A stretch of DNA of 64,000 nucleotides from Bacilli bacterium (GCA_028693035.1 JAQUWE010000003.1:8255-72254); one strand, 5' to 3'. Positions 18,137 through 63,343 are shown, counted from the first letter of the stretch. A program made the numbers and translations. The notes: a model not told the origin generated them from the sequence alone.

Positions 18137-18154
18137 GCATAATAGGTGATAAAA

Positions 18155-18457
18155 ATGAAAAAAAACTGTGAAGGATGTACAAGATCAAAACATAGAACAG
18201 AAGAAGAACAAAAAGATTTAAAAAGAAGATTAAAAATTATTGCAGGTCAAATAAATGGTATTGAACAAATGGTTGAAAATGATAGATATTGCGATGATAT
18301 TTTATTACAGATATCCTCTGCAACAAACGCTTTAAAAAGTCTTGGAAATAAGATATTAAAAAGTCATATGCAAACATGTGTCGTAGAAGACATCGCAAAT
18401 GGAAAATTAGAAGTCATTGATGACGTGATTGATTTATTTGGAAAGCTTAATAAATAA
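18155..18457 (+). CDS. csoR: CsoR/RcnR (DUF156) family metal-sensing transcriptional repressor
   Basis: RLKIIAGQINGIEQMVENDRYCDDIL...KSHMQTC has the C...H-x3-C ligand pattern of copper-type CsoR. There is an extra N-terminal CEGC. Confidence 0.8.
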   Translation: MKKNCEGCTRSKHRTEEEQKDLKRRLKIIAGQINGIEQMVENDRYCDDILLQISSATNALKSLGNKILKSHMQTCVVEDIANGKLEVIDDVIDLFGKLNK

Positions 18458-18470
18458 GGGAGAGGTATAT

Positions 18471-19604
18471 ATGATATATTTAGATTATGCAGCTGCGACA
18501 CCTACCGAAGAAGAGGTGTTAGATACTTTTTATACAGCTACAAAAAAATACTATGCCAATCCAAACTCTTCTCATGCATTAGGCTTAGAAGCGAAAGAAA
18601 TGATTGATACTTGTACCAAAGATATAGCAGATTATCTACAAATTCTACCGGAAGAAATTATTTATACTTCAGGTGCCAGTGAATCCAACAATCTAGCAGT
18701 TAAAGGTATTTGCGAAAGATATAGAAGCCGTGGCAAACATATTTTAATCAGTGGTTTGGAACACAATTCTATAGTAGCGCCTGCTGTAGCGATGCAAGAA
18801 CTTGGTTTTGAGGTAGAATTGATTCCTATTAACAAAGAAGGATATATAGACCTAGATGCTTTAAAACAAATGATAAGAGAAGATACTATTTTAGTAAGTG
18901 TCAGTGCAGTTGACAGTGAGCTTGGTATAAAGCAGCCTATCGAAGAAATAGGAGCCTTTTTAAAACAATACCCAAACTGTTTCTTTCATACTGATGCATC
19001 ACAGGCAATGGGTAAGGTAAACATAGAGTATAAACAAGCTGATTTAATTACAATCACTCCTCATAAATTTTATGGAATGAATGGATTTGGTTTATTAATC
19101 AAAAAAAATAATGTAAGTTTAAAACCTCAAATAAATGGAGGCAAGTCTACTACCATCTATAGAAGTGGCACTCCCTTTTTAGCAGGTATTGCATCTTGTG
19201 AAAAAGCATTTGCTTTGGCTCTACCAAAAGTAGAGGAAAGATATATATACGTAAAAAAATTAAGTGATAAAATCAAAGATAGAATAAGAGAATACAAAAA
19301 TGTTTCTATTAACAATACAGACAATTCAATTCCGCATACAATCAATCTTAGTATGAAGGGTATCAAAGCCATTCACTTACAACAAGAATTTGAAAAACAT
19401 GGTATTTTGGTTTCCACAAAAACATCTTGCTGTCCTATAGAAACACCTTCTAAACTTGTGTATGCTTTGACAAAGGACAAAGGAATTTCACATTCTTCTT
19501 TAAGAGTTAGTTTATCACATTTAACCAAGGAAGAAGAAGTAGATGCATTTTTAAATACATTTGATTTCATATATAAGGAGTATCAAAATAATGGAAAAAT
19601 ATAA
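18471..19604 (+). CDS. cysteine desulfurase (NifS/IscS-like class V aminotransferase)
   Basis: IYLDYAAATP at the N-terminus and the PHKFYG PLP-lysine motif. Start moved to ATG 18471, after GGGAGAGG. Confidence 0.8.
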   Translation: MIYLDYAAATPTEEEVLDTFYTATKKYYANPNSSHALGLEAKEMIDTCTKDIADYLQILPEEIIYTSGASESNNLAVKGICERYRSRGKHILISGLEHNSIVAPAVAMQELGFEVELIPINKEGYIDLDALKQMIREDTILVSVSAVDSELGIKQPIEEIGAFLKQYPNCFFHTDASQAMGKVNIEYKQADLITITPHKFYGMNGFGLLIKKNNVSLKPQINGGKSTTIYRSGTPFLAGIASCEKAFALALPKVEERYIYVKKLSDKIKDRIREYKNVSINNTDNSIPHTINLSMKGIKAIHLQQEFEKHGILVSTKTSCCPIETPSKLVYALTKDKGISHSSLRVSLSHLTKEEEVDAFLNTFDFIYKEYQNNGKI

Positions 19605-20418
19605 AGAAATAGAAAGAAATATCATAAAAAAATATCGTAAGGAAATTTGGAGTAAATTTATTAAAGCAGTACAACAATATGAACTTATCAAAGAAAATGA
19701 TCGGATTATGGTTTGTATTTCGGGTGGAAAAGATTCCTTTTTATTAGCAAAATGTATCCAAGAGTTAGAAAAACATGGAAAGGTTCCTTTTGAAGCACAT
19801 TACGTGGTAATGGATCCAGGGTATAATGCATACAATCGTGATTTTATCGTAGACAATGCCAAAACACTAGATGTACCTATTGAAATATTTGAAACAGATA
19901 TCTTTGATATAGTAGCGTCTACTGATAAAAGTCCTTGCTATTTATGTGCCAAAATGAGAAGGGGTTACTTATATAAAAAAGCAAGTGAATTAGGGTGTAA
20001 TAAAATTGCGCTTGGGCATCACTTTGACGATGTCATTGAAACCACTCTTTTATCTATGTTTTATGGTTCTGAAATCAAAACAATGATGCCAAAACTGCAT
20101 AGTGAAAATTTTGAGGGGCTCGAACTCATTAGACCTTTATACCTTGTTAAAGAAGAAGATATAATCGCTTGGAAAAAGTCTAATGAACTAACCTTTATCA
20201 ATTGTGCGTGCCGGTTTACAGAAGGGTGTTCTTTAGTCAATGATGGAACAAGTAAACGAAAAGAAATGAAAGAACTGATTAAAACTTTAAGAAAAGTAAA
20301 CCAAGATATAGACCATAACATTTTTAAGAGTCTAGACAATGTCAATTTAAATTGTATACTTGGTACTAAAAAGAATGGGGAATATAGTAGCTTTTTAGAA
20401 AAGTATGATGAAAAATAG
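19591..20418 (+). CDS. PP-loop ATPase, TtcA/tRNA thiolation family
   Basis: SGGKDS PP-loop, CYLCAKMRRG and a later CACRF cysteine pair. Overlaps the desulfurase gene by 14 nt. Confidence 0.75.
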   Translation: MEKYKEIERNIIKKYRKEIWSKFIKAVQQYELIKENDRIMVCISGGKDSFLLAKCIQELEKHGKVPFEAHYVVMDPGYNAYNRDFIVDNAKTLDVPIEIFETDIFDIVASTDKSPCYLCAKMRRGYLYKKASELGCNKIALGHHFDDVIETTLLSMFYGSEIKTMMPKLHSENFEGLELIRPLYLVKEEDIIAWKKSNELTFINCACRFTEGCSLVNDGTSKRKEMKELIKTLRKVNQDIDHNIFKSLDNVNLNCILGTKKNGEYSSFLEKYDEK

Positions 20419-20496: not shown

Positions 20497-21636
20497 ATGG
20501 CAGGATTACAAAAATTAAATTTAAAGTTTGAAAATGGAAATAACGTTTGTATAAATGATACTTATCTGGTTCCAATTTATGAAGAAATATTAGAATTCTT
20601 GAATAATGAAAAGTATATGGAAACGCTTTCATTTGCTAAAAGCGCTATGCTCTCTCAAGAAATAAAGTGCAATGTAACACTGGAAAAAATAGAACATACG
20701 TCAAATAATATTGACCAATTAATTATAAATGATAAAAAGATAAGAGTTGAAGAGAGGAAAAGAATTATCAACTTATATCATGGATATCAATATATTTTAT
20801 CAAACAAAATAATAAATCAAAATAATTTAACAGAATTGTATTCTATTTTGAGTCACGAAATACTTCTTACTAACAATCAAAAAAACACGGGACAATTTTA
20901 TAGAAATAAACCTGTCTATCTTTTGAAAAAATGTAAGTTAACAGAGGATGTCATTATGGGGGTTGATCCGTGTAATGTTCCTCAATATATGAACCATTTT
21001 TTTGATTATATAAATGATGGGAGTCCAACCACAAAAATGGAACACTTTCTGAAGTCACAAATCATGCATTTCTATTTCCTTTACATTCATCCATATCTTG
21101 ATATAAACGGACGGACTGCAAGAACTGTATCAATGTGGTATTTACTAAATAACAAATGTTATCCTTATGTCATATTTAATAAAGCAATTGCTTTCGCTAA
21201 GAAAGAATATGAAAATGCCCTAACAAAAGGAAGAGACAAAGGAGACATTACTTTATTTTTAAAATATATTTTGGTAAATATGAAAAGAGAATTAGAAAAA
21301 GAGTATATTATCCATAGTATTGTAGAAAATTGTAAGGAAGATATATCTAGAAAAGAACAGCAAGTAATTCATTATTTTTTAACTATGAATGGTAATTTAA
21401 CAGTAAAGGATTTAATAGGTGTTTATAATTGTTACAATCCTGCAAAAAGACCCAATATTGTATACGAAGAAAATGTAGTTTCTCTTATAGAAAAAGGAAT
21501 TTTTTTAAATAAGGGGTATACAAAAGGATATATAGCAAATGAAAAACCAAATATGATGATAGGTTTAAATCCAGATATGGTGAATGTCAATATATCTAAA
21601 GTAAAGCTTTTATCTTTAAATAAAATTATGTATTAG
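20497..21636 (+). CDS. Fic family protein
   Basis: Fic motif HPYLDINGRTAR (HxFx[DE]xNGRxxR-like). Confidence 0.8.
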   Translation: MAGLQKLNLKFENGNNVCINDTYLVPIYEEILEFLNNEKYMETLSFAKSAMLSQEIKCNVTLEKIEHTSNNIDQLIINDKKIRVEERKRIINLYHGYQYILSNKIINQNNLTELYSILSHEILLTNNQKNTGQFYRNKPVYLLKKCKLTEDVIMGVDPCNVPQYMNHFFDYINDGSPTTKMEHFLKSQIMHFYFLYIHPYLDINGRTARTVSMWYLLNNKCYPYVIFNKAIAFAKKEYENALTKGRDKGDITLFLKYILVNMKRELEKEYIIHSIVENCKEDISRKEQQVIHYFLTMNGNLTVKDLIGVYNCYNPAKRPNIVYEENVVSLIEKGIFLNKGYTKGYIANEKPNMMIGLNPDMVNVNISKVKLLSLNKIMY

Positions 21637-21652
21637 AAAAGGTGTTATTAGT

Positions 21653-22345
21653 ATGAATCAAGAAAATATAGGAAAATTCATAAAAAAACTTAGACAAGAA
21701 AGTCATTTGACCCAAAAACAATTTGCGGACAAATATGGGGTTACTTTCCAAGCTGTTAGTAAATGGGAGAATGGGAAAAACATTCCTGACATTTCTGTAT
21801 TAAGACAAATCTGCAAAGACCATGGCATTAGTATGGAAGAAATATTAGGAGATAAACCTACTCATAAAAGTAAGAAGCCATTTATTATTGTAGGGGCTAT
21901 CATTTTCCTTATTATTCTTTTCACTTGTTTATTTTTCTTTTTAGAAAATAAATCTTCAGACTTTCAGTTTAAAAAAATATCTACAACATGTTCTTCTTTT
22001 AAAATAACAGGAAGTGCAGCCTATAATAAAGATAAATCTTCTTTATATATTTCTAATATTGAATTTTGTGGAAAAAATGAAAATATAGAATATAAAGAAC
22101 TTACCTATACTTTATATGAAAATTATGAAAAGGGAAAATCAAAAATAAGTGGAGGAAATCAAGAACAAAATCTCACTTTAGTAAATTTCTTAAAAAAAAT
22201 AAAAATCAATGTAGATCATTATGAACAACTTTGTAAATCATTCACACATTCTAATTTATCTATTGAAATTAAAGCAATCGATTATGAAAATAAGGAAACC
22301 TTATTTAAAATCCCACTTTTATTAGAAAAAAATTGTGAAGTATAA
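21653..22345 (+). CDS. XRE-family HTH regulator with a single TM helix and an extracytoplasmic domain
   Basis: N-terminal IKKLRQESHLTQKQFADKYGVTFQAVSKWENGKNIPD, followed by the hydrophobic segment FIIVGAIIFLIILFTCLFFF. Confidence 0.8.
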   Translation: MNQENIGKFIKKLRQESHLTQKQFADKYGVTFQAVSKWENGKNIPDISVLRQICKDHGISMEEILGDKPTHKSKKPFIIVGAIIFLIILFTCLFFFLENKSSDFQFKKISTTCSSFKITGSAAYNKDKSSLYISNIEFCGKNENIEYKELTYTLYENYEKGKSKISGGNQEQNLTLVNFLKKIKINVDHYEQLCKSFTHSNLSIEIKAIDYENKETLFKIPLLLEKNCEV

Positions 22346-23263: not shown

Positions 23264-23292
23264 TTGCCCTTATTTAGATGTAGTGCTATAAT
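23264..23292 (+). promoter_or_regulatory. sigma-A-type promoter of the 10-gene operon
   Basis: TTGCCC, a 17-nt spacer, then TATAAT. Confidence 0.55.
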
Positions 23293-23295
23293 TAT

Positions 23296-23316
23296 AAATG
23301 CAAATGATTAGCATTT
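23296..23316 (+). promoter_or_regulatory. Fur-family operator candidate (7-1-7 inverted repeat)
   Basis: AAATGCAAAT-G-ATTAGCATTT matches 9 of 10 positions between arms. The core TGCAAAT-G-ATTAGCA starts 7 nt after the -10 hexamer and 22 nt before the first ATG. Confidence 0.6.
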
Positions 23317-23337: not shown

Positions 23338-23802
23338 ATGAATAATTTTTTAAATGCAAAAAGTGTAACTTTTCATGCTTATTATAAAGAAGACGAAGAG
23401 GGTCTTGCACTACCTATTTTACAGCAAGATGAAGAAAATATAAGTATTGAATTCGATGTGAAAGATTTTGATTGTCTAGAATTACAGCTCTTGTTCGATG
23501 ATAAACAATCGTTGCCATCAGAGCTTCATTTTAAAACAAAGGTAGCAGGGGATCCACTTTTACTTATAGTAGAACCCAAAAAGGAAATACCAGAAGAAGA
23601 GGAACCTGTCAAATATCATGATTATCAAATCGATGATGTAGAGCAAGAACTTCATATAGAATTAAATCCTATGACTAGGGAACTAAATATTGATGCATGG
23701 GGATGGATCAATCAAAATAGAAAAGCAGTTCTTTCCGTATCTGCTACTTATCAAAATGAAAAGAATTCACAATTTATAAAAACAAGGAAAGAAGGGAAAT
23801 AA
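23338..23802 (+). CDS. acidic hypothetical protein (first gene of the operon)
   Basis: ATG 23338 follows AAAGGAG; the GTG at 23317 in the ORF track lies inside the operator/SD region. No recognisable motif. Confidence 0.5.
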   Translation: MNNFLNAKSVTFHAYYKEDEEGLALPILQQDEENISIEFDVKDFDCLELQLLFDDKQSLPSELHFKTKVAGDPLLLIVEPKKEIPEEEEPVKYHDYQIDDVEQELHIELNPMTRELNIDAWGWINQNRKAVLSVSATYQNEKNSQFIKTRKEGK

Positions 23803-24800
23803 TGAGAGTATCATTCTTAGGAAAGGGTGGAAGCGGAAAAACAACGATATCTTCTGCTTTTATAGGATATTTACTTAATAAAAAAGAAAAGGTATTAGCG
23901 ATTGATGCTGATATGAATGTCCATTTAGAAAAAACATTTCATATGGAAACAAAGCCATTAAGTGATGCTAGTGAAGAAATTAAGGAATACTTAGAAGGTA
24001 ATAGAAGAGCTTATACAAAGAATAACAATAAAGTGAAAAGTTATTTAAACAAAGTGATCAATGGAGATACCAAAGCTCCGATTATAGGTTGTACCCCGCC
24101 AGCACGTTCCTCAAAGTTTATTAGAATTGACGAAAACGATCCCTTTATTAAAAAATATGCTACCAAAAAGGATGGACTTTATCTAATGACAGTTGGAACT
24201 TACAATGAAAGTGAAATAGGTTCTAGTTGTTACCACGGTAAGTTAGAAGTCGCAGAGATGGTGTATCACCACTTATTGGATAATGAAAACAACTATGTGG
24301 TTTCTGATTCAACGGCAGGAATAGACAGTGTAGGAACTTCTATGTTTTTTGTGTCTGATATAAATATATTTGTAATTGAACCTACAAAAAAAGGCATTGA
24401 TGTTTACAAAGATTTTAAAGAGGTTTCTAAAAAATATGGTATAAACACTTACGTAATTGGAAACAAAATTGAAAACCAAGAAGATATTGATTTTTTAAAA
24501 CAAGAAATTGGTACAGATGTAATTCTTGGGTTTATAAAAAATTCTTCAAAAATGAGAAAATTTGAACAAGGAAATGCAGTAGGAATGAAAGAATTTATCA
24601 AAGAAAATACAGATACTTTTGATAGAGTCTGCGCACTTATGCAAGAAACAAAACGGGATTGGGATAAATACTATCAAATATTGCTTGAAGTTTATAAAGC
24701 CAATATTGAGGAATGGTATAATGCATTTTATGGTGAGAAATTAGAAAAATATATTGATGAAGACTTCCACTATGAAAAGGTTTTCAATGAAGAAAATTAA
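23802..24800 (+). CDS. SIMIBI-class P-loop NTPase (CooC/MinD/ArsA-like), possible metallochaperone
   Basis: Deviant Walker A FLGKGGSGKTT, AIDADMN, and a later SDSTAG switch-like motif. TAATG overlap with the upstream gene. Confidence 0.65.
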   Translation: MRVSFLGKGGSGKTTISSAFIGYLLNKKEKVLAIDADMNVHLEKTFHMETKPLSDASEEIKEYLEGNRRAYTKNNNKVKSYLNKVINGDTKAPIIGCTPPARSSKFIRIDENDPFIKKYATKKDGLYLMTVGTYNESEIGSSCYHGKLEVAEMVYHHLLDNENNYVVSDSTAGIDSVGTSMFFVSDINIFVIEPTKKGIDVYKDFKEVSKKYGINTYVIGNKIENQEDIDFLKQEIGTDVILGFIKNSSKMRKFEQGNAVGMKEFIKENTDTFDRVCALMQETKRDWDKYYQILLEVYKANIEEWYNAFYGEKLEKYIDEDFHYEKVFNEEN

Positions 24801-26220
24801 ATTTACGCCTTTAATAGATGAACCGATTTTATCCTTTTTGAAAGATAAAAATCAGGTTAAGAAATTAACAAGTATGTTTGGTTCCCCATGCAATGTTCTT
24901 TTTCCTCAAAGGTTACAAGAAAATATAAATATATTCTATAATATTTTTGATAAACATTTGATTGATGGAAAGGTTTTTTATGCACATAAAGCCAATCAGT
25001 CTACTGCGATTGTTAAAGAGGCAGCGCTTACAAAAGCTAGTATTGATGTAGCTTCCTTAAATGAACTTAAAAGTGCTGTTTCATCAGGTTTTGTAGGCGA
25101 TAAAATAGAAGCAACAGGTCCTAAAAACATTCATTTTCTTATATTGGGATTGCAACACCATATTACTTTTAATATTGATTCTATTAGTGAACTAGAACAA
25201 CTTCTTATTTTAAAGGAAAAGTTAAAAATAAAACAGAAAATAAAAATAATATGTAGAATAAGTGGATTTAGATACAACGACATGCTTTCTAAAAAAAGTA
25301 GATTTGGAATAGATATAGAAGAAATGGATACCTGTTTTTGTATGATAAAAGAAAACTTGCAAAAGATAGATTTTCTAGGTTTTTCATTTCATTTAGATAC
25401 TATTATGAAGCAAGAAAAAGTCAATGCTATTTGTACATGTATTGAATTGTTTTTAACGGCTTATAAGTATGGTCTTACACCTCATATTTTAGATATTGGA
25501 GGTGGATACAAAGTCAATTACTTAAAAGATAAGGAAGAATGGGATGAAAGCATTACAGCATTAAAGTTGTCTCTTTTCTCACAAGAATCTTTTACATGGA
25601 ATGATGCTTCTTTTGGTTTAACAGTGAAAAATCATACCTTATCTGGTACTTTGAATATTTACAATTATTATGATGAAGAAACAGCAGATAAGTATTTAAA
25701 TGCTATATTAGAAAGCAAATTAGAACAATATCAAAATCAAACAATAGGAGAGATACTAAGTGAAAACATGATTACACTATATATCGAACCTGGAAAATCC
25801 CTTTTAAATCAAATGGGTATTACTTTAGCAAACGTTACATTTATAAAAAAAAGCAATCAAGAAATTTTGATTGGATTGGATATGAAAAAAAGTGATGTTG
25901 TAATTGGCGAACAAGAGCTTTTTATGGATCCTATCATTCTTTCTGATGCAGAAAAATTACAAAAAGAAGTAGGCGTTTATTTTGTTGGAAATCTTTGCCT
26001 AGAGAATGATTTAATTTTTAAACACAAAGTTTTTATTGATCGTATTCCTAAAATAGGTGATGTAATAGCTTTTATGAATACTGCAGGATATTTTATGGAC
26101 TTTAATGCAAGCTCTACCATAAAGCAAAATATAGCAAAAAAAGTAATTGCTATAAAAAAAGAAAAGGGTTTTGATTATTACGAAGATGAAATTTATCATC
26201 CGTTAGTAGATAAGGAGTAA
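24787..26220 (+). CDS. PLP-dependent decarboxylase, Orn/DAP/Arg decarboxylase (fold type III) family
   Basis: FYAHKANQS (PLP-lysine motif YAxKAN), DIGGGY and EPGKSL motifs. Start uncertain (24772 or 24787). Confidence 0.7.
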   Translation: MKKIKFTPLIDEPILSFLKDKNQVKKLTSMFGSPCNVLFPQRLQENINIFYNIFDKHLIDGKVFYAHKANQSTAIVKEAALTKASIDVASLNELKSAVSSGFVGDKIEATGPKNIHFLILGLQHHITFNIDSISELEQLLILKEKLKIKQKIKIICRISGFRYNDMLSKKSRFGIDIEEMDTCFCMIKENLQKIDFLGFSFHLDTIMKQEKVNAICTCIELFLTAYKYGLTPHILDIGGGYKVNYLKDKEEWDESITALKLSLFSQESFTWNDASFGLTVKNHTLSGTLNIYNYYDEETADKYLNAILESKLEQYQNQTIGEILSENMITLYIEPGKSLLNQMGITLANVTFIKKSNQEILIGLDMKKSDVVIGEQELFMDPIILSDAEKLQKEVGVYFVGNLCLENDLIFKHKVFIDRIPKIGDVIAFMNTAGYFMDFNASSTIKQNIAKKVIAIKKEKGFDYYEDEIYHPLVDKE

Positions 26221-26222
26221 AA

Positions 26223-27548
26223 ATGTTATATAAAAATACAATTGATTTAATTGGCAATACTCCACTAGTAGAGATTGATGCCAAAATACACGGGCTTAAA
26301 AATATAAATATATATGCAAAATTAGAAATATATAATCCTTTTGGATCCGTAAAAGATCGAACGGCTTATGGTCTTTTAAAAAATCATATAGAAGAAATCA
26401 AACAGAACAAACAAGTTGTTTTAGAATCTTCTAGTGGAAATACAGCCAAAGCCTTGTCTATCCTTTGTGGGATACATGATATTCCTTTTAAAACGATTAC
26501 AAATCGAATAAGGGTTTCAGAGACAAGAGACATTTTAAAAGTAGTAGGTGCTACCATAGAAGAACTTCCTGGTTTATCTGAATGCCCAGATCCAACAGAT
26601 CCTAATGATCCTATTAAATATATAGAACGTCTTATGGTAAAAGATCCAAACAAGTATTTTCATACATCACAGTATACCAATTTAGATAATCCCTTAATGC
26701 ATTACAATACAACAGGAAAAGAAATATGGGATGATTTAGGAAAGGTGGATTACTTTTTTGGTACCCTTGGGACAACCGGGTCGAGTCGTGGAATTGTAGA
26801 ATATTTACTAGAAAAAAATAGTCATTTAAAGAAGATGGGAATTATCGCATCAAAAGGAGATGACATTCCTGGTATTAGAAATCTTGACGAAATGTATGAA
26901 GTTGGAATTTTTGAGAAAAAACTTTATGATGATATTGTAACGGTAAACGCTATGGATGCTTTAGATGCTATGGACTCTTTAATTAAAAAATGTGGCATTT
27001 TAGGAGGACCAACCAGTGGTGCTTGCTACCAAGGTATGATGCAGTACTTAAAAAAAATAGATGCAACACTCAATAAAAAGGTTAATGCTGTCTTTGTAGT
27101 TTGTGATAGATTTGAAGGATATATATCTTATATTAAAAAAAGAAAACCAGAGATATTTAATAACGATGTAAAAAAGGAAAGTATATGGAATTTAAAAGAA
27201 GAGGATCAAAACTATGCAAAAGAAATAGACAGCAAAGATGCTATACATTGGATAGAAGATAGGCAATCACTTATAATTGATTTAAGAGGCAATCTTGCTT
27301 ACCGAAATGGTCATTTGAAAAATTCTATTAATATTTTAGAACACTGTTTTGAGGATTTAACAGATAACACGATTCCATTCACACCCAACAATAAAATTTT
27401 ATTAATATGTCCAACCGGTTTAAAATCAAAAAAATTTAGTATTTTATTAAACAAAAGAGGATTGGATGTATACAGTTTAAAAGGCGGTATAATAGAATGG
27501 CGCAATCAAAATTACCCTCTGGAAAGAATCAACATAGCGGAATCATGA
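26223..27548 (+). CDS. cysteine synthase/SbnA-like PLP enzyme (fold type II) fused to a C-terminal rhodanese domain
   Basis: GSVKDRTA (PLP Lys), SSGNTAKA, GTLGTTGSSRG and GGPTSGA. The C-terminal roughly 100 aa has IIDLRGNLAYRNGHLKNSINI and the active-site loop CPTGLKS. Confidence 0.75.
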   Translation: MLYKNTIDLIGNTPLVEIDAKIHGLKNINIYAKLEIYNPFGSVKDRTAYGLLKNHIEEIKQNKQVVLESSSGNTAKALSILCGIHDIPFKTITNRIRVSETRDILKVVGATIEELPGLSECPDPTDPNDPIKYIERLMVKDPNKYFHTSQYTNLDNPLMHYNTTGKEIWDDLGKVDYFFGTLGTTGSSRGIVEYLLEKNSHLKKMGIIASKGDDIPGIRNLDEMYEVGIFEKKLYDDIVTVNAMDALDAMDSLIKKCGILGGPTSGACYQGMMQYLKKIDATLNKKVNAVFVVCDRFEGYISYIKKRKPEIFNNDVKKESIWNLKEEDQNYAKEIDSKDAIHWIEDRQSLIIDLRGNLAYRNGHLKNSINILEHCFEDLTDNTIPFTPNNKILLICPTGLKSKKFSILLNKRGLDVYSLKGGIIEWRNQNYPLERINIAES

Positions 27549-28726
27549 ACATAGAAAAAATAAGATGTGAATTTCCTTTTTTTAAGAACAATCCAAATGT
27601 TATTTATTTTGACAATGCCGCTACCACACAAAAGCCAAAAATTGTACTTGAAAAAATAAATGATTATTATACCAATCAGTGCTATAATGTGAATAGGGGA
27701 AAATATAAACCTGCCAATGACTTGTCTTTAGAAATAGATAGAAGTAGGCAAAAAATTTGTGATTTTATAAATGCAAATAAAGTAGAAGAAGTACATTTTA
27801 TAAATGGAGCTTCCTCTGTTGCAAATGACTTATCTATTTTATTAAGTGGCGTTTTTTTAAAACCTTTAGATGAGGTACTTCTATGTAAAAGTGACCATAA
27901 ATCTACAGTTTCTCCTTGGATTCATGTTTTAGATACTATGAAAGAAAAAGAATGTAAAATAGTACCTATATTATTATCTCCATCGGGCGATTATGATGAG
28001 AATGATTTGTATCAGAAACTATCTAATAAGACAAAAGTTGTTATACTCACTCATATTCATAATGTACATGGTATGGAAATGAATATCCAAGAAATTATAA
28101 AAAAAGTTAGAGAAAAAACAAACGCAAAAATTATTGTGGATGCTACCCAAAGTATTGCACACACAAAAGTGGATGTGCAAGAGATAGATGCTGATGCTTT
28201 ATATTTTTCAGGGCATAAAATGTTTGCCCAAACAGGAATTGGTATTTTATGGATGAAGGAAGAAACAAATCAGGAATTATTGCAATATTTCTGTTATGAT
28301 AATCAGAATCCACATCAATTATTTGAAAAAGGAACACCCAATATCAGTGGAATATTGTCTTTGGGATGTGCTACTGATTTTATAACAATGCTAGGGATTG
28401 AAAAAATAGAGCAATATCTATTAGAACTTACTACATACCTTATCAATAATCTTAAAAAAATTGAAAGCGTAGAATTTGATAGTGGCCCCGCTGTATGCAG
28501 TTGCAAAGAAGGGTATGGGATTGTATCTTTTAAAGTAGATGGTTACCATGTTTCCGAAATAGCAGAAGCATTATCGTTTCAAAATATTTTTGTAAGAGCA
28601 GATACACAATGTTCCTACAATGAGAGAAATTCTTATCTTAGAGTCAGTCTTCAAATTTACAATACAAAAGAAGAAATAGATAGATTTATAAAAGCAATTA
28701 CACAAATTATAGAATGGAGTGTATAG
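27545..28726 (+). CDS. SufS/CsdA-like cysteine desulfurase (class V aminotransferase)
   Basis: FDNAATTQKP, the SGHKM PLP lysine, and a C-terminal RADTQCS loop with a candidate persulfide cysteine. ATGA overlap with the upstream gene. Confidence 0.75.
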   Translation: MNIEKIRCEFPFFKNNPNVIYFDNAATTQKPKIVLEKINDYYTNQCYNVNRGKYKPANDLSLEIDRSRQKICDFINANKVEEVHFINGASSVANDLSILLSGVFLKPLDEVLLCKSDHKSTVSPWIHVLDTMKEKECKIVPILLSPSGDYDENDLYQKLSNKTKVVILTHIHNVHGMEMNIQEIIKKVREKTNAKIIVDATQSIAHTKVDVQEIDADALYFSGHKMFAQTGIGILWMKEETNQELLQYFCYDNQNPHQLFEKGTPNISGILSLGCATDFITMLGIEKIEQYLLELTTYLINNLKKIESVEFDSGPAVCSCKEGYGIVSFKVDGYHVSEIAEALSFQNIFVRADTQCSYNERNSYLRVSLQIYNTKEEIDRFIKAITQIIEWSV

Positions 28727-28727
28727 T

Positions 28728-29129
28728 ATGAAAGAAATAATAGGAAAGAATACAAAACATAGAAAAAATTTGTTAGAAATTTTAAATAAGGCAGAAATAG
28801 CTTTATCTGTAGAAGATATTTATCAAATTATGGTGCAAAATGGAGATAAGAAATTAGCATTGTCTACTGTTTATCGCAATATGAATGTAATGGTAGAGTC
28901 TGGACAAGTCAGCAAAGTTTTTGACGAACTCGGTACCGCCCTATACAAGGTTAATTCTCATATACATTCTCATCAACTAGAGTGTCAAAAGTGTCATAAA
29001 AAGGTTGTAATAGATGTTTGTCCGTATGACTTAGTACAAAATACAATCTTAAAAGATAAAGATTTTACCATCGTAGAAAATACAGCTTTACTACAAGGAT
29101 ACTGTAAAGGCTGTCTACCAAAAGTGTAA
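28728..29129 (+). CDS. Fur family transcriptional regulator (Fur, Zur or PerR type not assignable)
   Basis: LSTVYRNM DNA-binding helix, HSHQLECQKCHK and CKGC (two CxxC pairs of the structural Zn site). Confidence 0.8.
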   Translation: MKEIIGKNTKHRKNLLEILNKAEIALSVEDIYQIMVQNGDKKLALSTVYRNMNVMVESGQVSKVFDELGTALYKVNSHIHSHQLECQKCHKKVVIDVCPYDLVQNTILKDKDFTIVENTALLQGYCKGCLPKV

Positions 29130-29147: not shown

Positions 29148-30059
29148 ATGCAAGATTTATCTATTATATTTTTATCTATATTATTAGAAGCCATTCCCTT
29201 TATATTACTAGGGGTTTTTGTTTCCGCACTCATTGAAGAATTCGTATCTCCTGATTTTTTCAGTAAAATCATTCCTAAAAATCCTATTTTAGGAGCGATA
29301 GTAGGTGTTATTATGGGATTTTTTGTACCAGCCTGTGATTGTGCGGTTATCCCTATTTCTAAAAGACTTATCAAAAAAGGGGTTCCTATCAATGTTGCGA
29401 TTACCTTTATGTTAGCGTCTCCCATTGTAAACCCCGTTGTTATTTTATCCACATTCTACGCCTTTGGAACCTTGCTTCCTAAAATGATTATCATGAGAAC
29501 AATTCTTGGAATTATTTTAGCCATTATCATTGGATATAGAGTAGGATCTAACCAGGACGAAGAAGATATTTTGAAGTACAATGTGCAAGATGAAAATGAA
29601 AAATGTGGGTGTGAATCCTGTAATATGAGTGAACCTTACTTATTAAAAGGCAAAGGTTTAAAAAGCAGAATGATTAATATCTTAATTAGAGCCAATAAAG
29701 AATTTTGGGATATTTGTAAATATTTAATTATAGGTGCATTGATTGCCAGTGTTATGCAGGTCTATGTACCAAGAGATATTTTAACATCTATAAGCAGCAA
29801 TTCTATTTTATCAATTGTTTGCCTAATGATTTTTGCTTATTTACTATCCCTTTGTTCTACATCAGATTCTTTTGTTGCCAAAACATTTATCAATCAGTTC
29901 AGCAACAGTGCTGTTTTAGCTTTCCTTCTTTTAGGACCTATGATTGATATTAAAAATACCATTGTCTTAACAGGCAATTATCAGCCTAAATTTATTGTTA
30001 AATTACTTGTTTATATCTTTGTTTGTGTCTTTTTAACTGCTCTTATTATTAAAATATAG
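29148..30059 (+). CDS. DUF318-type permease (partner of a TIGR03943-family protein)
   Basis: About 8 TM segments with repeated PACDCAVIP / LCSTSDSF motifs and a Cys-rich loop CGCESC. Followed by its typical partner gene. Confidence 0.65.
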   Translation: MQDLSIIFLSILLEAIPFILLGVFVSALIEEFVSPDFFSKIIPKNPILGAIVGVIMGFFVPACDCAVIPISKRLIKKGVPINVAITFMLASPIVNPVVILSTFYAFGTLLPKMIIMRTILGIILAIIIGYRVGSNQDEEDILKYNVQDENEKCGCESCNMSEPYLLKGKGLKSRMINILIRANKEFWDICKYLIIGALIASVMQVYVPRDILTSISSNSILSIVCLMIFAYLLSLCSTSDSFVAKTFINQFSNSAVLAFLLLGPMIDIKNTIVLTGNYQPKFIVKLLVYIFVCVFLTALIIKI

Positions 30060-30075
30060 AAGGAGAAAATGCTTT

Positions 30076-30879
30076 ATGAAACTAAGAAAATCTTTTAAAA
30101 TAGTAATCTTTGCTTTTTATGCAGGAATGATTTTTTTCCTTTATTTTAGTGGTATGATAAAAAGGATGATCCATCCAAGAATGTATCCTTTTATTCTACT
30201 ATCAGCTGTTATCCTTCTTTTATTTTGTATCGTAGAACATCTCTTTTTAAAAAAACAGAGACTAGGGCGTATTCAATTTTTCAATTTTGTCTATTTAATT
30301 CCTATTGTTTGTATCTTTTTTACAAATAATGCGAATCTTAGTAATAAGATTATTCAAAATAAAGGAATCAATATTGGTCTTAATTCCAACCAAAATGCCA
30401 GTACAAATAAAGCACAAAAAAAGACTACGGATCAACAGGACAACGATATTATAGAAGAGCGTTTTGAAGAAGATATACCAAAGCAAAACCAGGAAGAAAC
30501 ATCTAAAAAAAGTAGTGAAAAAAAAGAAATGATTGAAATAGCGGATGCTGATTTCTTATGGCAAGTAAGTGATATTTCCATTAATATAAATGATTATGTT
30601 GGAAAAGAAGTTAGTTATACGGGATTTATTTATAGAGATGAAACAGTAGAAGCCAATCAGTTTGTAGTAGGAAGGCTCGCTATGACATGCTGCACAGCAG
30701 ATGCTGGACTTATGGGATTTTTGGCTACCTATGCTGATTATGCCAATATCAAAGATGGTGACTGGTATCAAATTAAAGCAGTTATTGATAAAAGAAAGTA
30801 TAATGGCGTTATGCTTCCTTATTTAAAAATATATGAGGTTGTAAAAGTAGATAAACCAGCTGACGAATATGTATATTAA
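30076..30879 (+). CDS. TIGR03943-family putative permease subunit
   Basis: Two or three N-terminal TM helices, a low-complexity linker, and a C-terminal domain with the conserved MTCCTADA motif. Confidence 0.65.
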   Translation: MKLRKSFKIVIFAFYAGMIFFLYFSGMIKRMIHPRMYPFILLSAVILLLFCIVEHLFLKKQRLGRIQFFNFVYLIPIVCIFFTNNANLSNKIIQNKGINIGLNSNQNASTNKAQKKTTDQQDNDIIEERFEEDIPKQNQEETSKKSSEKKEMIEIADADFLWQVSDISININDYVGKEVSYTGFIYRDETVEANQFVVGRLAMTCCTADAGLMGFLATYADYANIKDGDWYQIKAVIDKRKYNGVMLPYLKIYEVVKVDKPADEYVY

Positions 30880-30906
30880 AAAGGCTTGGTTATAAGGAAG
30901 TGTATT

Positions 30907-31986
30907 ATGAAAAAAAGAATCAATAAAAATAATTTAGTTCCAATTTTGCTCATACTTGGTGCGCTAAGTATGATCTTTTTTGTGTATCATAATGATGCTT
31001 TTTATTCTAAAACAATTGTAAAGTGTGAGAAAGTAGAAACAAGTAAAACAGAGGTATCTACCAATGCACAAGGATTTAAAGAACAATATTATAAACAAAA
31101 CATTATTGGTATGATTACAAATGGAAATCAAAAAGGGAAAGAAATAAAGCTTGCAAATGAATATGCAGATTCGCTAGTGGTTACAGAAAAATACAAAGTA
31201 GGGAACAAGGTATTTGTGGATGGCAAAAATATCGAAGGACTAAAAAGAGATACCTATATGGTAACTATGACTGTACTTTTTATTGTAATGCTTTATTTTA
31301 TTGGAAAAGTACGAGGCTTAACTGCCATTATCAGTGTTATTTTTAATATCCTTATTTTCTATTTTGGATTGTATTTTTATTTTAAAGGAATGAATTTGTT
31401 ATTGCTTTGTATGATAGAGTCCCTCTTTTTTACCGTCTTTTCTTTATTGCTAGCAGGTGGTAAAAATAAAAAAACAGTAGCGGCTATTCTATCGGTGATT
31501 GCGTCTACCATCCTATTGTTTATCATGACGTATATTGTCATTTCTGTTACTCATTACAAAGACATTAGTTTTAATGAAATGAATTTTCTTACCGTTCCTG
31601 TAGAAGATGTATTTATGGCAAGTCTTATGATTGGTGGTCTTGGTGCTATTATGGATATTGCTATCACTATGGCGTCTTCAATTGCGGAACTTATCCAAAA
31701 GGATAATAAAATAAGTACAAAGGCCTTAATAAAATCAGGCACAGAAATTGGAAAAGATATTTTTAGTACAATGATTAATGTTTTGTTTTTTACTTATTTA
31801 TGTGGAAGTTTGCCAATCTTTGTTTTATCTTTAAGAAATGGCTTTACTTTATATAATTATATAACAAGTAATTTTTCTATTGAATTATCTAGATTTTTTG
31901 TAGGGAGTATTGGCATTATTTTAACCATTTCTATTTCTTTACTTCTTTCTATTTTCCTTTTAAAAAGAGGTGATACACATGAATAA
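30907..31986 (+). CDS. YibE/F family membrane protein
   Basis: N-terminal TM helix plus an extracytoplasmic domain, then about 6 TM segments with the GLGAIMDIAITMASS motif. Confidence 0.6.
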   Translation: MKKRINKNNLVPILLILGALSMIFFVYHNDAFYSKTIVKCEKVETSKTEVSTNAQGFKEQYYKQNIIGMITNGNQKGKEIKLANEYADSLVVTEKYKVGNKVFVDGKNIEGLKRDTYMVTMTVLFIVMLYFIGKVRGLTAIISVIFNILIFYFGLYFYFKGMNLLLLCMIESLFFTVFSLLLAGGKNKKTVAAILSVIASTILLFIMTYIVISVTHYKDISFNEMNFLTVPVEDVFMASLMIGGLGAIMDIAITMASSIAELIQKDNKISTKALIKSGTEIGKDIFSTMINVLFFTYLCGSLPIFVLSLRNGFTLYNYITSNFSIELSRFFVGSIGIILTISISLLLSIFLLKRGDTHE

Positions 31987-32734
31987 AATACTTGGATGTA
32001 TTCTTATTTTACTGATGATTTTAGTCGGTGGTAAAAGAGGGGTTAAAGCATCTATTACTTTGGTACTAAATTTTCTTGTGTTACTGGTTGCTTTTTATTT
32101 GATTACACTTGGCATTTCTCCTATTGTAGTTTCTCTATTAGGGTGCTGTTTCATTGCTTATATTGTTTTATTTTTAACAGGTGGCGATACCATTAAAACA
32201 AGAACCACCTTTCTATCTGTTCTTTTGGTTTTGCTTTTGATGACAGCCTTTATTATAGTTGTAACCAAAGGGTCTATGATAGAAGGGTTTGGTAGTGAAT
32301 CATATGAAGAAATCAATATGTTTTCTTATGACATTGGCATTCGTTTAACAGATATTACCGTTTCTCTTATTTTAATAGGACTTATCGGTGCGATGATAGA
32401 TACTTCCATTGCGATAGCCTCTGCTGTTTATGAAGTTTATACAAATAACAAAGACCTAAATCAAAAGCAGCTATTTCATTCAGGTATGCGCATTGGTAGA
32501 GATATATTAGGCACTACAGTCAATACACTTTTCTTTGCATTTTTAGGAGAATTTATAACTTTACTTATTTGGTTTTATAGTTGCCATTATTCTTTTGGAG
32601 AAATTATCAATGCCAAAGTATTTTGTGCAGAATTCGTGAAAATATTATTTATAGGTTTTGGAAGTATCTTTATTATTCCTATTTCTGCTTATATGATTTC
32701 TTATCAAATCACTAAAAAAGTAAAAAAAGAATAA
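31979..32734 (+). CDS. YibE/F family membrane protein (second copy)
   Basis: Multi-TM protein with a paralogous motif GLIGAMIDTSIAIASA. Overlaps the previous gene by 8 nt. Confidence 0.6.
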   Translation: MNKILGCILILLMILVGGKRGVKASITLVLNFLVLLVAFYLITLGISPIVVSLLGCCFIAYIVLFLTGGDTIKTRTTFLSVLLVLLLMTAFIIVVTKGSMIEGFGSESYEEINMFSYDIGIRLTDITVSLILIGLIGAMIDTSIAIASAVYEVYTNNKDLNQKQLFHSGMRIGRDILGTTVNTLFFAFLGEFITLLIWFYSCHYSFGEIINAKVFCAEFVKILFIGFGSIFIIPISAYMISYQITKKVKKE

Positions 32735-62470: not shown

Positions 62471-63343
62471 TTAATCATATAATTCTTGTTTTAATAATTC
62501 AATATTATTATTCATAAGGGAAATATAATCTTTGTTTTCTTTTCTAGAAGCATCATCTAGATTAGAGATGGTATGGAAAGTAAGAGTAGGAACTTCTGTA
62601 TTTTTTATTAATTTTTGAACAGTTCCATTGACTTCTTCATTATCAAGAACAAAGATATTCTTAATCGTACCCAAACGAATCATCTTTTGCACATCACTTA
62701 CAGTCTTTTGTGTTAAATTCGCATTTTCTTCTAAAGAGATTACATTAAAATTATATTTTTCTAAAAATTTAAATACATCATTCGAAACAACAATGGTTTT
62801 ACGATTCGCACTTTCACTAACAAGTTTAAATTTTGCATCTAAAGAAGAAATTTCTAATTTTAAAGCATCATAGTTCTGATTGATTTCTTCTTTTAAGTAG
62901 TGATTGCTGATATATTCATTTAATCCATTTTTGATATTTTGAGAAAGCATTAAGAAATTAGAAGGATTTAACCATAAATCTTCAATTTCATTTGTATATT
63001 CCATACTAAGGGTTGTATCAATAATTTTGATGTTTTTGTTTTCTTTGAACATTTTAATAACATCTTTTTTCTCATTTTCAACAAGTCCATTAAAAATAAA
63101 CATACTGCCTTTACTATAATCTTTGATTTGTTTATCAGTAAGTTTATAGTTTCTAGGATCAACACCATCTGGATACACACTGCTTACAGTACTGTGGGTT
63201 CCATATAAACGGTTTGTGATATATTCCATTGGATAAGAAGTTGTATAAATGGTGATATCTTCTAAAACATCCCTTTTAAAGCATCCTGTAAGTCCTATAC
63301 ATAAAATAGATAGAAGTAGGATTGTTCCTATTTTTTTCTTCAT
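62471..63343 (-). CDS. TroA/ZnuA-fold substrate-binding lipoprotein without the usual His ligands, and with no adjacent ABC partner
   Basis: Lipobox LTGCF. The family-like blocks [25 protein letters not shown] and DLWLNP carry R/D where ZnuA-type proteins have His. Confidence 0.5.

Follow-up and report, generated by a model that had tools for sequence, protein, structure and literature searches.

The only characterised enzymes with the two-domain architecture considered here are fungal. AMA synthase of Aspergillus oryzae (8H4H, 8H4Q) and Fda4 of Fusarium poae both consist of a CysK-fold domain dependent on pyridoxal phosphate (PLP), followed by a rhodanese domain with a cysteine. The former joins O-phosphoserine to aspartate, while the latter, described as a PALP-rhodanese protein, joins it to alanine, the products being metal chelators or diaminopropionate (Dap) units derived from O-phosphoserine (PMC12751119). 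The C-N chemistry of Tln5, SbnA and CmnB is similar to that of AMA synthase. A bacterial gene with the same order of domains, encoding a PALP-rhodanese fusion of 441 amino acids, is found on a stretch of 64,000 nucleotides from a Bacilli bacterium (GCA_028693035.1, JAQUWE010000003.1:8255-72254; the whole stretch is referred to as the window, and all coordinates are those of the window), where it overlaps a gene for a SufS-like cysteine desulfurase. These two genes would make up one half, that concerned with sulfur, of a metal-regulated biosynthetic cassette probably gained by horizontal transfer. The fusadapamide cluster of Fda4 holds no partner genes of the cassette type (PMC12751119). The window fusion and the fungal enzymes have a P-x-x-P-x-P-x-D loop after the fourth strand in common; on the other hand, the fungal proteins are about 80 residues longer and 22% identical to the window fusion over the structural alignment, and AMA synthase has a glutamine where the bacterial fusions have a cysteine, C121.

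Sulfur-transferring systems provide the second set of comparisons. Rhodanese domains, that of ThiI among them, receive sulfur from IscS and are known acceptors of desulfurase persulfides; type II desulfurases need a dedicated persulfide acceptor. Set beside SufS (which works with SufU or SufE) and IscS (with ThiI and YnjE), the window enzyme shows the fold and the catalytic residues of a type II desulfurase; it differs from SufS in a RADTQC instead of a RAGHHC motif, in a shorter segment after the cysteine and in an acceptor that would be a domain of a PLP enzyme. The SbnA/SbnH pair of staphyloferrin B synthesis and the ethylenediamine-disuccinate (EDDS) genes (aes cluster) of Amycolatopsis japonicum likewise combine an O-phosphoserine-using CysK-fold enzyme with a decarboxylase of the ornithine/diaminopimelate (Orn/DAP) type under metal regulation. 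The window is without an SbnB-type dehydrogenase, NIS synthetases and SbnI, and has a rhodanese domain, a SufS-like gene and a CooC-like ATPase in addition to what either system holds. Protein-bound sulfur is known to reach PLP intermediates by two routes. The O-phosphoserine-specific CysM of Mycobacterium tuberculosis receives its sulfur from the protein thiocarboxylate CysO, and SepCysS makes cysteine without free sulfide by applying enzyme-bound persulfides to a PLP intermediate derived from phosphoserine. The latter is the nearest mechanistic precedent for what is proposed below, but it belongs to fold-type I, has phosphoserine on tRNA as its substrate and is no homologue of the PALP domain. 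As for the former, neither CysO nor MoeZ is encoded near the window fusion and cysE was not found in the genome; a rhodanese-bearing MoeZR is linked to the CysM/CysO pathway of M. tuberculosis (PMC3227635).

It is proposed that the SufS-like enzyme would draw sulfur from L-cysteine, carry it on Cys356 in persulfide form and hand it to Cys396 on the rhodanese domain of the fusion, the product of the preceding gene, a hand-over suggested because neither SufU nor SufE stands beside the SufS-like gene. The PLP domain would convert a beta-activated serine to aminoacrylate, the most likely substrate being O-phosphoserine because of a CysM-type IPGIR arginine and because all characterised relatives use that compound. 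The sulfane sulfur may then be delivered to the aminoacrylate via two cysteines, Cys396 followed by Cys121, which sits in a flexible PLP-domain loop, to give a beta-thio amino acid other than cysteine (e.g., cysteine persulfide or a lanthionine-like thioether), from which the adjacent decarboxylase would form a thiol or thioether amine capable of binding metal. The chemical steps, substrate, product and metal of this scheme are all inferred, from domains, residues, conservation and gene linkage that were observed, and the modified relay as a whole (C356 to C396 to C121 to aminoacrylate, and on to a non-cysteine sulfur amino acid and a metal-binding amine) is given a probability of roughly 40%. 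An earlier note on this DNA had already suggested a sulfur relay from the desulfurase through the rhodanese cysteine to the aminoacrylate, an idea that the present data support in part; the passage from desulfurase to rhodanese remains plausible, while delivery onto the aminoacrylate shares the rough probability just given.

Residues of the fusion protein and its overlapping neighbour

Pfam recognises both parts of the fusion, namely PALP at residues 8-295 (E 1.7e-45, above the curated cut-off) and Rhodanese at residues 340-428 (E 9.3e-13, 48.9 bits against a cut-off of 22.2), and every motif of the fold-type II PLP and rhodanese domains quoted in the earlier note is present. Conserved are the PLP lysine K44 in GSVKDR (codon 26352-26354), the asparagine loop SSGNTAKA (residues 69-76) and the glycine-rich phosphate loop GTTGSSRG (residues 182-189). 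The rhodanese loop reads CPTGLKS, with the catalytic C396 (codon 27408-27410); its C-x-x-G-x-x-S pattern is that of single-domain sulfurtransferases, and GlpE is among the nearest solved relatives. Other key residues are the loop cysteine C121 (codon 26583-26585) and R219 (codon 26877-26879). Conservation of the rhodanese cysteine among homologs, on which the claim of a relay partly turned, was borne out, since C396 is invariant together with D353, R355 and K44 in all 30 fusion representatives of one alignment (A1; 34-64% identity).

By sequence, the PLP domain is best matched by CysM of Escherichia coli and Salmonella (E 9e-34, as compared to 1e-21 for AMA synthase), with which it has the IPGIR arginine in common; it departs from CysM in its extra cysteine loop and fused rhodanese domain. 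The NCBIfam equivalog cut-offs are not reached for CysM (170 against 413 bits), cysKM (169 against 344), cysK (134 against 351) or the SbnA family TIGR03945 (158 against 350). A housekeeping cysteine synthase was considered and rejected in view of these scores, which are far below the cut-offs, of the one further CysK/M-like gene in the genome (contig 21) and of an operon with a decarboxylase and a metal regulator. An AlphaFold2 model of the fusion (mean predicted local distance difference test, pLDDT, 90.6; predicted template modelling score, pTM, 0.87; pLDDT below 50 only in loop 119-125) matches CysM 3DKI with Z 37.6, and aligns over 415 residues with 8H4H/8H4Q, the sole solved structure spanning both of its domains.

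The latter match favours an explanation in which the fusion would act in the manner of AMA synthase or SbnA, with an amino acid or amine providing the amino group to which O-phosphoserine is joined. Removal of the new alpha-carboxylate by the decarboxylase would then yield an ethylenediamine-type unit of an EDDS- or aspergillomarasmine-like aminopolycarboxylate metallophore, the rhodanese domain would be structural or regulatory and the SufS-like enzyme would serve otherwise. Consistent with this, AMA synthase, Fda4, Tln5, SbnA and CmnB all use O-phosphoserine and form C-N bonds, and the Zur-controlled synthesis of EDDS in A. japonicum is a known zincophore pathway (PMC6103462). The PLP domain nevertheless scores higher with CysM than with SbnA or AMA synthase, C121 is absent from the latter, and Pfam domain scans of the window found no SbnB/AesB-type dehydrogenase. 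Moreover, C-N chemistry would leave C396, C121 and the translationally coupled, dedicated SufS-like gene (seen in about eleven lineages) without a role, and it is held to be possible but doubtful.

C121 belongs to the motif S-E-C-P-D-P-x-D-P. The PLP-domain loop that carries it aligns with the CysM segment holding a Gly-Met-Glu-Gly turn; in CysK structures, this turn borders the entrance to the active site. The cysteine is nearly invariant (at least 90%) across the 30 rows of A1 and invariant in A2, an alignment of 25 rows covering both bacterial fusion groups (described below). None of the seven rhodanese-less relatives aligned (38-48% identity) has a cysteine at this position, and those among them that are fused to a DAP-epimerase domain show a deletion of nine residues exactly at the C121 loop. 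The loop cysteine therefore tracks the rhodanese domain in bacteria, as would be predicted for a two-cysteine relay or for a site shared between both domains. C121 and the private desulfurase are what distinguish the bacterial family from AMA synthase.

A shared site could take the form of a metal site or redox switch made up of C396 and C121 with its acidic CPDPxDP loop, for which the CooC-like ATPase or, in other lineages, a COG0523-like GTPase would load or sense the metal. The loop is rich in aspartate and proline and is the only low-confidence part of the model; of all partners, the CooC-like ATPase accompanies the fusion most constantly across both groups; COG0523-like GTPases recur in the cassette (four lineages); and one lineage has redox genes as neighbours (glutathione peroxidase, a thioredoxin-reductase-like gene and desulfoferrodoxin). 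However, the rhodanese loop has the pattern usual for sulfurtransferases, the dedicated desulfurase is left unexplained and we know of no precedent for a metal site using the catalytic cysteine of a rhodanese, making this an improbable explanation.

Within the segment 27535-27560 (TAGCGGAATCATGAACATAG), the TGA stop codon of the fusion gene (27546-27548) overlaps the ATG at 27545, so that the ATGA reported in the earlier note is indeed seen at 27545-27548. The product of 393 amino acids read from this ATG aligns with Bacillus SufS from residue 1 (MNIEKIRCEFPF against MNITDIREQFPI); an alternative upstream ATG at 27497 would give an overlap of 52 nucleotides, and the two genes overlap with either start. 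The product matches Aminotran_5 (E 5.4e-82) and retains, as previously claimed, the PLP lysine K225 in SGHKM (codon 28217-28219) and the active-site cysteine C356 in RADTQCS (codon 28610-28612) near its C-terminus. These two residues and H118, D199, R351 and R366 align with catalytic residues of SufS structures and are kept in seven of seven cassette orthologs (31-51% identity; six other cassettes); with the whole desulfurase set retained, the class V enzyme does not, by its residues, look like a plain aminotransferase.

With TIGR01979 the SufS-like enzyme scores 297 bits (cut-off 475). The genome holds five Aminotran_5 genes, two of which are canonical SufS with AGHHC and AGNHC in place of the RADTQC of the cassette enzyme, and one canonical copy adjoins SufU on another contig. 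In a small tree, the cassette SufS-like proteins stand apart from the canonical copies with modest support (80/88). Because the genome has its own canonical SufS beside SufU elsewhere, the cassette enzyme is assigned as a dedicated paralog and not the canonical SufS. Scans with Pfam and NCBIfam found no SufU, SufE, SufBCD or other Fe-S scaffold genes in the operon, and the only candidate acceptor cysteine near the SufS-like enzyme is that on the rhodanese domain. Hand-over of its persulfide to the rhodanese domain is thus plausible, on the grounds that the gene coupling is conserved and that the enzyme is a dedicated paralog with no adjacent SufU or SufE. When the SufS-like dimer and the rhodanese domain were submitted together to complex prediction, without controls, no answer was returned (score 0.00), and this is not used as evidence on binding in either direction. 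The genome, with an estimated contamination of 6%, has two canonical SufS and two SufU genes in all (contigs C3, C23, C2), and one SufS/SufU pair may stem from a contaminating genome in the bin.

Replacement of SufU is at the centre of a further explanation, in which the SufS-like enzyme and the rhodanese domain would take over, under metal shortage and as a zinc-independent way of mobilising sulfur, from a SufU that needs zinc, as that of Bacillus does, with the PLP domain remaking cysteine out of serine and sulfane sulfur. In keeping with this, the genome does encode SufU as its housekeeping acceptor, the minimal unit of group 2 has no decarboxylase, aminoacyl-tRNA synthetase genes occur among the cassette neighbours and metal-free substitutes are frequent in metal-starvation regulons (PMC6103462). 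Recycling of this kind would, however, give no role to the decarboxylase found in every group-1 cassette; no Fe-S scaffold genes accompany it in the operon, and the methyltransferase and reductive-aminase genes of some cassettes indicate a small-molecule product. Its chances are rated as slim. A selenium-based reading (selenocysteine lyase plus rhodanese) was set aside, as selD was not found in the genome and the context has nothing related to selenium.

The cassette across lineages

The earlier note had regarded the fusion of these two domains as unusual, a view that does not survive comparison with databases. Among 5.8 billion proteins, the best 120 matches all carry PF00291 and PF00581 (the nearest being 64-65% identical), and about 30 full-length fusion clusters at 34-64% identity to the window protein are found among representatives at 50% identity, besides another set of full-length fusions that is more remote, at about 30% identity (group 2). 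Members originate from gut Clostridiales metagenome-assembled genomes (MAGs), many Streptomyces and a human oral metagenome contig, and some are labelled 'cysteine synthase/rhodanese-related sulfurtransferase' by IMG. In P0126, P0135, P0150 and P0169, otherwise invariant glycines of A1 are replaced by tryptophan (e.g., WSVKDR, SSWNT); the hosts of these homologs probably read TGA as glycine (code 25) and the gene callers as tryptophan, and some cassette hosts are probable candidate-phyla bacteria with recoded TGA. Neither 40 near relatives of the genome nor 398 other genomes of its phylum yielded the fusion, for which reason the operon was probably acquired horizontally. A scan of genome contigs with the single fusion protein returned only Ferruginibacter CysM-like genes without rhodanese.

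Neighbourhoods were compared by gene calls and by tblastn with the window proteins against 35 related loci. The core of the cassette comprises the CooC-like ATPase (present in most cassettes), the DAP-decarboxylase-like enzyme, the fusion and, often, the SufS-like gene. Wherever a group-1 locus includes upstream sequence, the decarboxylase gene immediately precedes the fusion. The SufS-like gene lies directly downstream of the fusion in about nine separate lineages, including Clostridiales MAGs, Streptomyces and the human oral metagenome contig, often with an overlap of 1-8 nucleotides, and 1-3 kb upstream in two further lineages. Fur-family genes occur near the cassette in several lineages, and a YibE/F-like gene adjoins it in L035. 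The cassette is widespread and metal-regulated, and its product is probably a small amine that contains sulfur or nitrogen and binds metal.

Between sulfur and nitrogen, part of this material speaks for the C-N chemistry of AMA synthase and SbnA: a metal context recurs, in that Fur-family genes, large COG0523-like GTPases and a ZIP transporter adjoin the cassette; the group 2 fusions are much closer to AMA synthase (254 bits) and come without a SufS-like gene; and the Streptomyces cassette adds two reductive-aminase-like genes and methyltransferases.

Several other points weigh directly against the persulfide relay. The characterised PALP-rhodanese enzymes, AMA synthase and Fda4, form C-N and not C-S bonds, and fungal AMA synthase keeps its rhodanese cysteine though its product is sulfur-free, so that conservation of C396 alone is no proof of sulfur chemistry. 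No SufS-like gene lies within the available flanks in five lineages (L018, L027, L047, L028 and L032), and group 2 is reduced to a Fur gene, the CooC-like ATPase and the fusion, in one case with a ZIP transporter next to them. The product of the relay would have to differ from cysteine, since remaking cysteine from cysteine sulfur would be futile. Lastly, serC and cysE, the gene for the serine acetyltransferase that provides CysK/CysM with O-acetylserine, had no match in the genome, leaving the relay without an evident supply of activated serine; as the genome is 93% complete, absence is not proven.

Some observations on relatives and neighbours of the cassette deserve mention in their own right. 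The closest rhodanese-less PALP relatives (48% identity; P0157; L042:7001-8641; L104:2633-4285) carry a DAP-epimerase domain, and their neighbours (GlmS-like, DUF4954 and FTCD genes) differ from those of the cassette. The DAP-epimerase fusions, along with the DAP-decarboxylase-like partner in the window, are the basis for a hint that products of this enzyme clade resemble diaminopimelate, i.e., two amino-acid ends joined by a heteroatom. A CysK-like PALP domain is fused to a complete cysteinyl-tRNA synthetase in P0202 (768 amino acids), while in the very long P0144, P0173, P0178 and P0207 (1197-2327 amino acids) the rhodanese domain of the query is matched repeatedly, in 8-16 separate places.

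CobW/COG0523-like GTPases of exceptional size (472-569 amino acids) occur in or beside the cassette at L027:2997-4583, L039:2385-3803, L047:3905-5614 and L018:9100-10764, and in L047 no CooC-like gene was detected beside the GTPase. In L022 (MetRS) and L027, what comes after the cassette are genes for aminoacyl-tRNA synthetases. The cassette of one Streptomyces sp. (L017, GCA_042268605.1) is without a CooC-like ATPase and lies behind a SARP-type regulator; the two reductive-aminase-like genes are found here, methyltransferases and an acetyltransferase follow, and the whole looks like a secondary-metabolite cluster.

Operon, regulation and flanking genes

The fusion and SufS-like genes are two members of an operon of ten genes behind a Fur-type palindrome (Table 1). 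All ten are on the + strand, tightly spaced or overlapping, and run from 23317/23338 to 32734 in a window with a G+C content of about 29%.

Table 1. Features of the operon and its upstream region, with positions in the window
Feature	Position	Strand	Basis and remarks
Promoter-like site	23264..23292	+	TTGCCC, 17 nucleotides, TATAAT, with TG before the -10 hexamer; consensus scan, 10/12 matches
Imperfect 10-1-10 palindrome, candidate Fur-family operator	23296..23316	none	AAATGCAAAT-G-ATTAGCATTT; read from sequence
Small acidic protein of no known family	23338..23802	+	Open reading frame (ORF) list; first operon gene
CooC/MinD-class P-loop ATPase, 332 amino acids	23802..24800	+	Pfam CbiA, AAA_31, ArsA_ATPase
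Fold-type III PLP decarboxylase, 488 amino acids, nearest diaminopimelate decarboxylase	24754..26220	+	Pfam Orn_Arg_deC_N, E 4e-25
PALP (CysM/SbnA-like)-rhodanese fusion, 441 amino acids	26223..27548	+	Pfam, NCBIfam, PDB, alignments, AlphaFold2 model
SufS-like (type II) cysteine desulfurase paralog, 393 amino acids	27545..28726	+	Pfam, NCBIfam, SufS alignments, tree
Fur-family regulator	28719..29129	+	Pfam FUR, E 1e-17; start GTG 28719 or ATG 28728
ArsP_1/DUF318 permease	29148-30059	+	Pfam, E 4.9e-71; first of membrane pair 29148..30879
DUF1980/TIGR03943 partner of the permease	30076-30879	+	Pfam, E 2.2e-35; TIGR03943 140 bits, cut-off 88.8
Two YibE/F-family membrane proteins	30886-31986, 31970-32734	+	Pfam YibE_F, E 1.3e-58 and 4.7e-67; operon end

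Promoter-like sites are not commoner in the region than in its shuffles, and the one listed is a candidate only, made credible by its position directly before the first operon gene. The palindrome begins four nucleotides after the TATAAT of this candidate, and a regulon search of the genome found no further copies of it above the control rate. The regulator encoded in the operon is the second and more divergent of two Fur-family proteins in the genome, and stays below the cut-off of every NCBIfam model for the Fur, Zur and PerR subfamilies. In view of the lack of a second palindrome copy and of any curated Fur, Zur or PerR fit, the metal that it senses is not assigned.

The small acidic protein at the head of the operon has no Pfam or NCBIfam matches; its ORF as listed opens at GTG 23317, and an AAAGGAG Shine-Dalgarno sequence precedes the ATG at 23338. 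For the CooC-like ATPase, the closest solved relative is CooC, the nickel-insertion protein of CO dehydrogenase (3KJE, E 4e-10). The decarboxylase matches NCBIfam lysA with E 2.7e-33 and 115 bits, below the equivalog cut-off of 298 bits, and DAP decarboxylases in the PDB with 1e-16, the lysine of AHKAN and the GGG and EPGKS motifs being aligned. It thus keeps the fold and PLP motifs of LysA, but has an extra insertion of about 55 residues of its own.

Outside the operon, a Fic/DOC-family gene and an HTH_3 (Xre-type) regulator are located just upstream (20497-22345, +), consistent with an accessory, possibly mobile, region. A separate, second sulfur-transfer operon 3 kb upstream (18146-20418, +) encodes, in this order, a CsoR-type metal-sensing repressor, a NifS/IscS-like desulfurase and a TtcA-like PP-loop ATPase. 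The sole gene for a ZnuA-family solute-binding protein found in the genome is also in the window (about 62486-63250, -), and the operon palindrome is not repeated near it.

Meaning for the enzyme family

The PALP-rhodanese architecture as such was known before, from labels in IMG and from fungal AMA synthase. Literature searches turned up no description of the widespread bacterial cassette, nor any account of what the rhodanese domain does in AMA synthase. It may be ventured, tentatively and with the odds on the other side, that the fusion is a new C-S bond-forming PLP enzyme which employs a rhodanese-tethered persulfide, supplied by a desulfurase of its own and relayed via the loop cysteine, as the nucleophile of beta-replacement. 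Together with the decarboxylase, it would yield a new thiol or thioether amine (cysteamine persulfide or one of thialysine/thia-diamine type) in small-genome bacteria of several phyla, alongside a CooC-like ATPase and in response to shortage of a metal, probably zinc.

If true, the relay would be a third protein-bound sulfur feed to a PLP beta-replacement enzyme, beside the CysO thiocarboxylate and SepCysS, and would point to a new sulfur-containing metal ligand from organisms with very small genomes. If, instead, the enzyme acts in the manner of AMA synthase, the cassette would represent a bacterial route to a class of chelators studied as metallo-beta-lactamase inhibitors. Either outcome would explain why the rhodanese domain has been retained on these enzymes, the fungal AMA synthase included.

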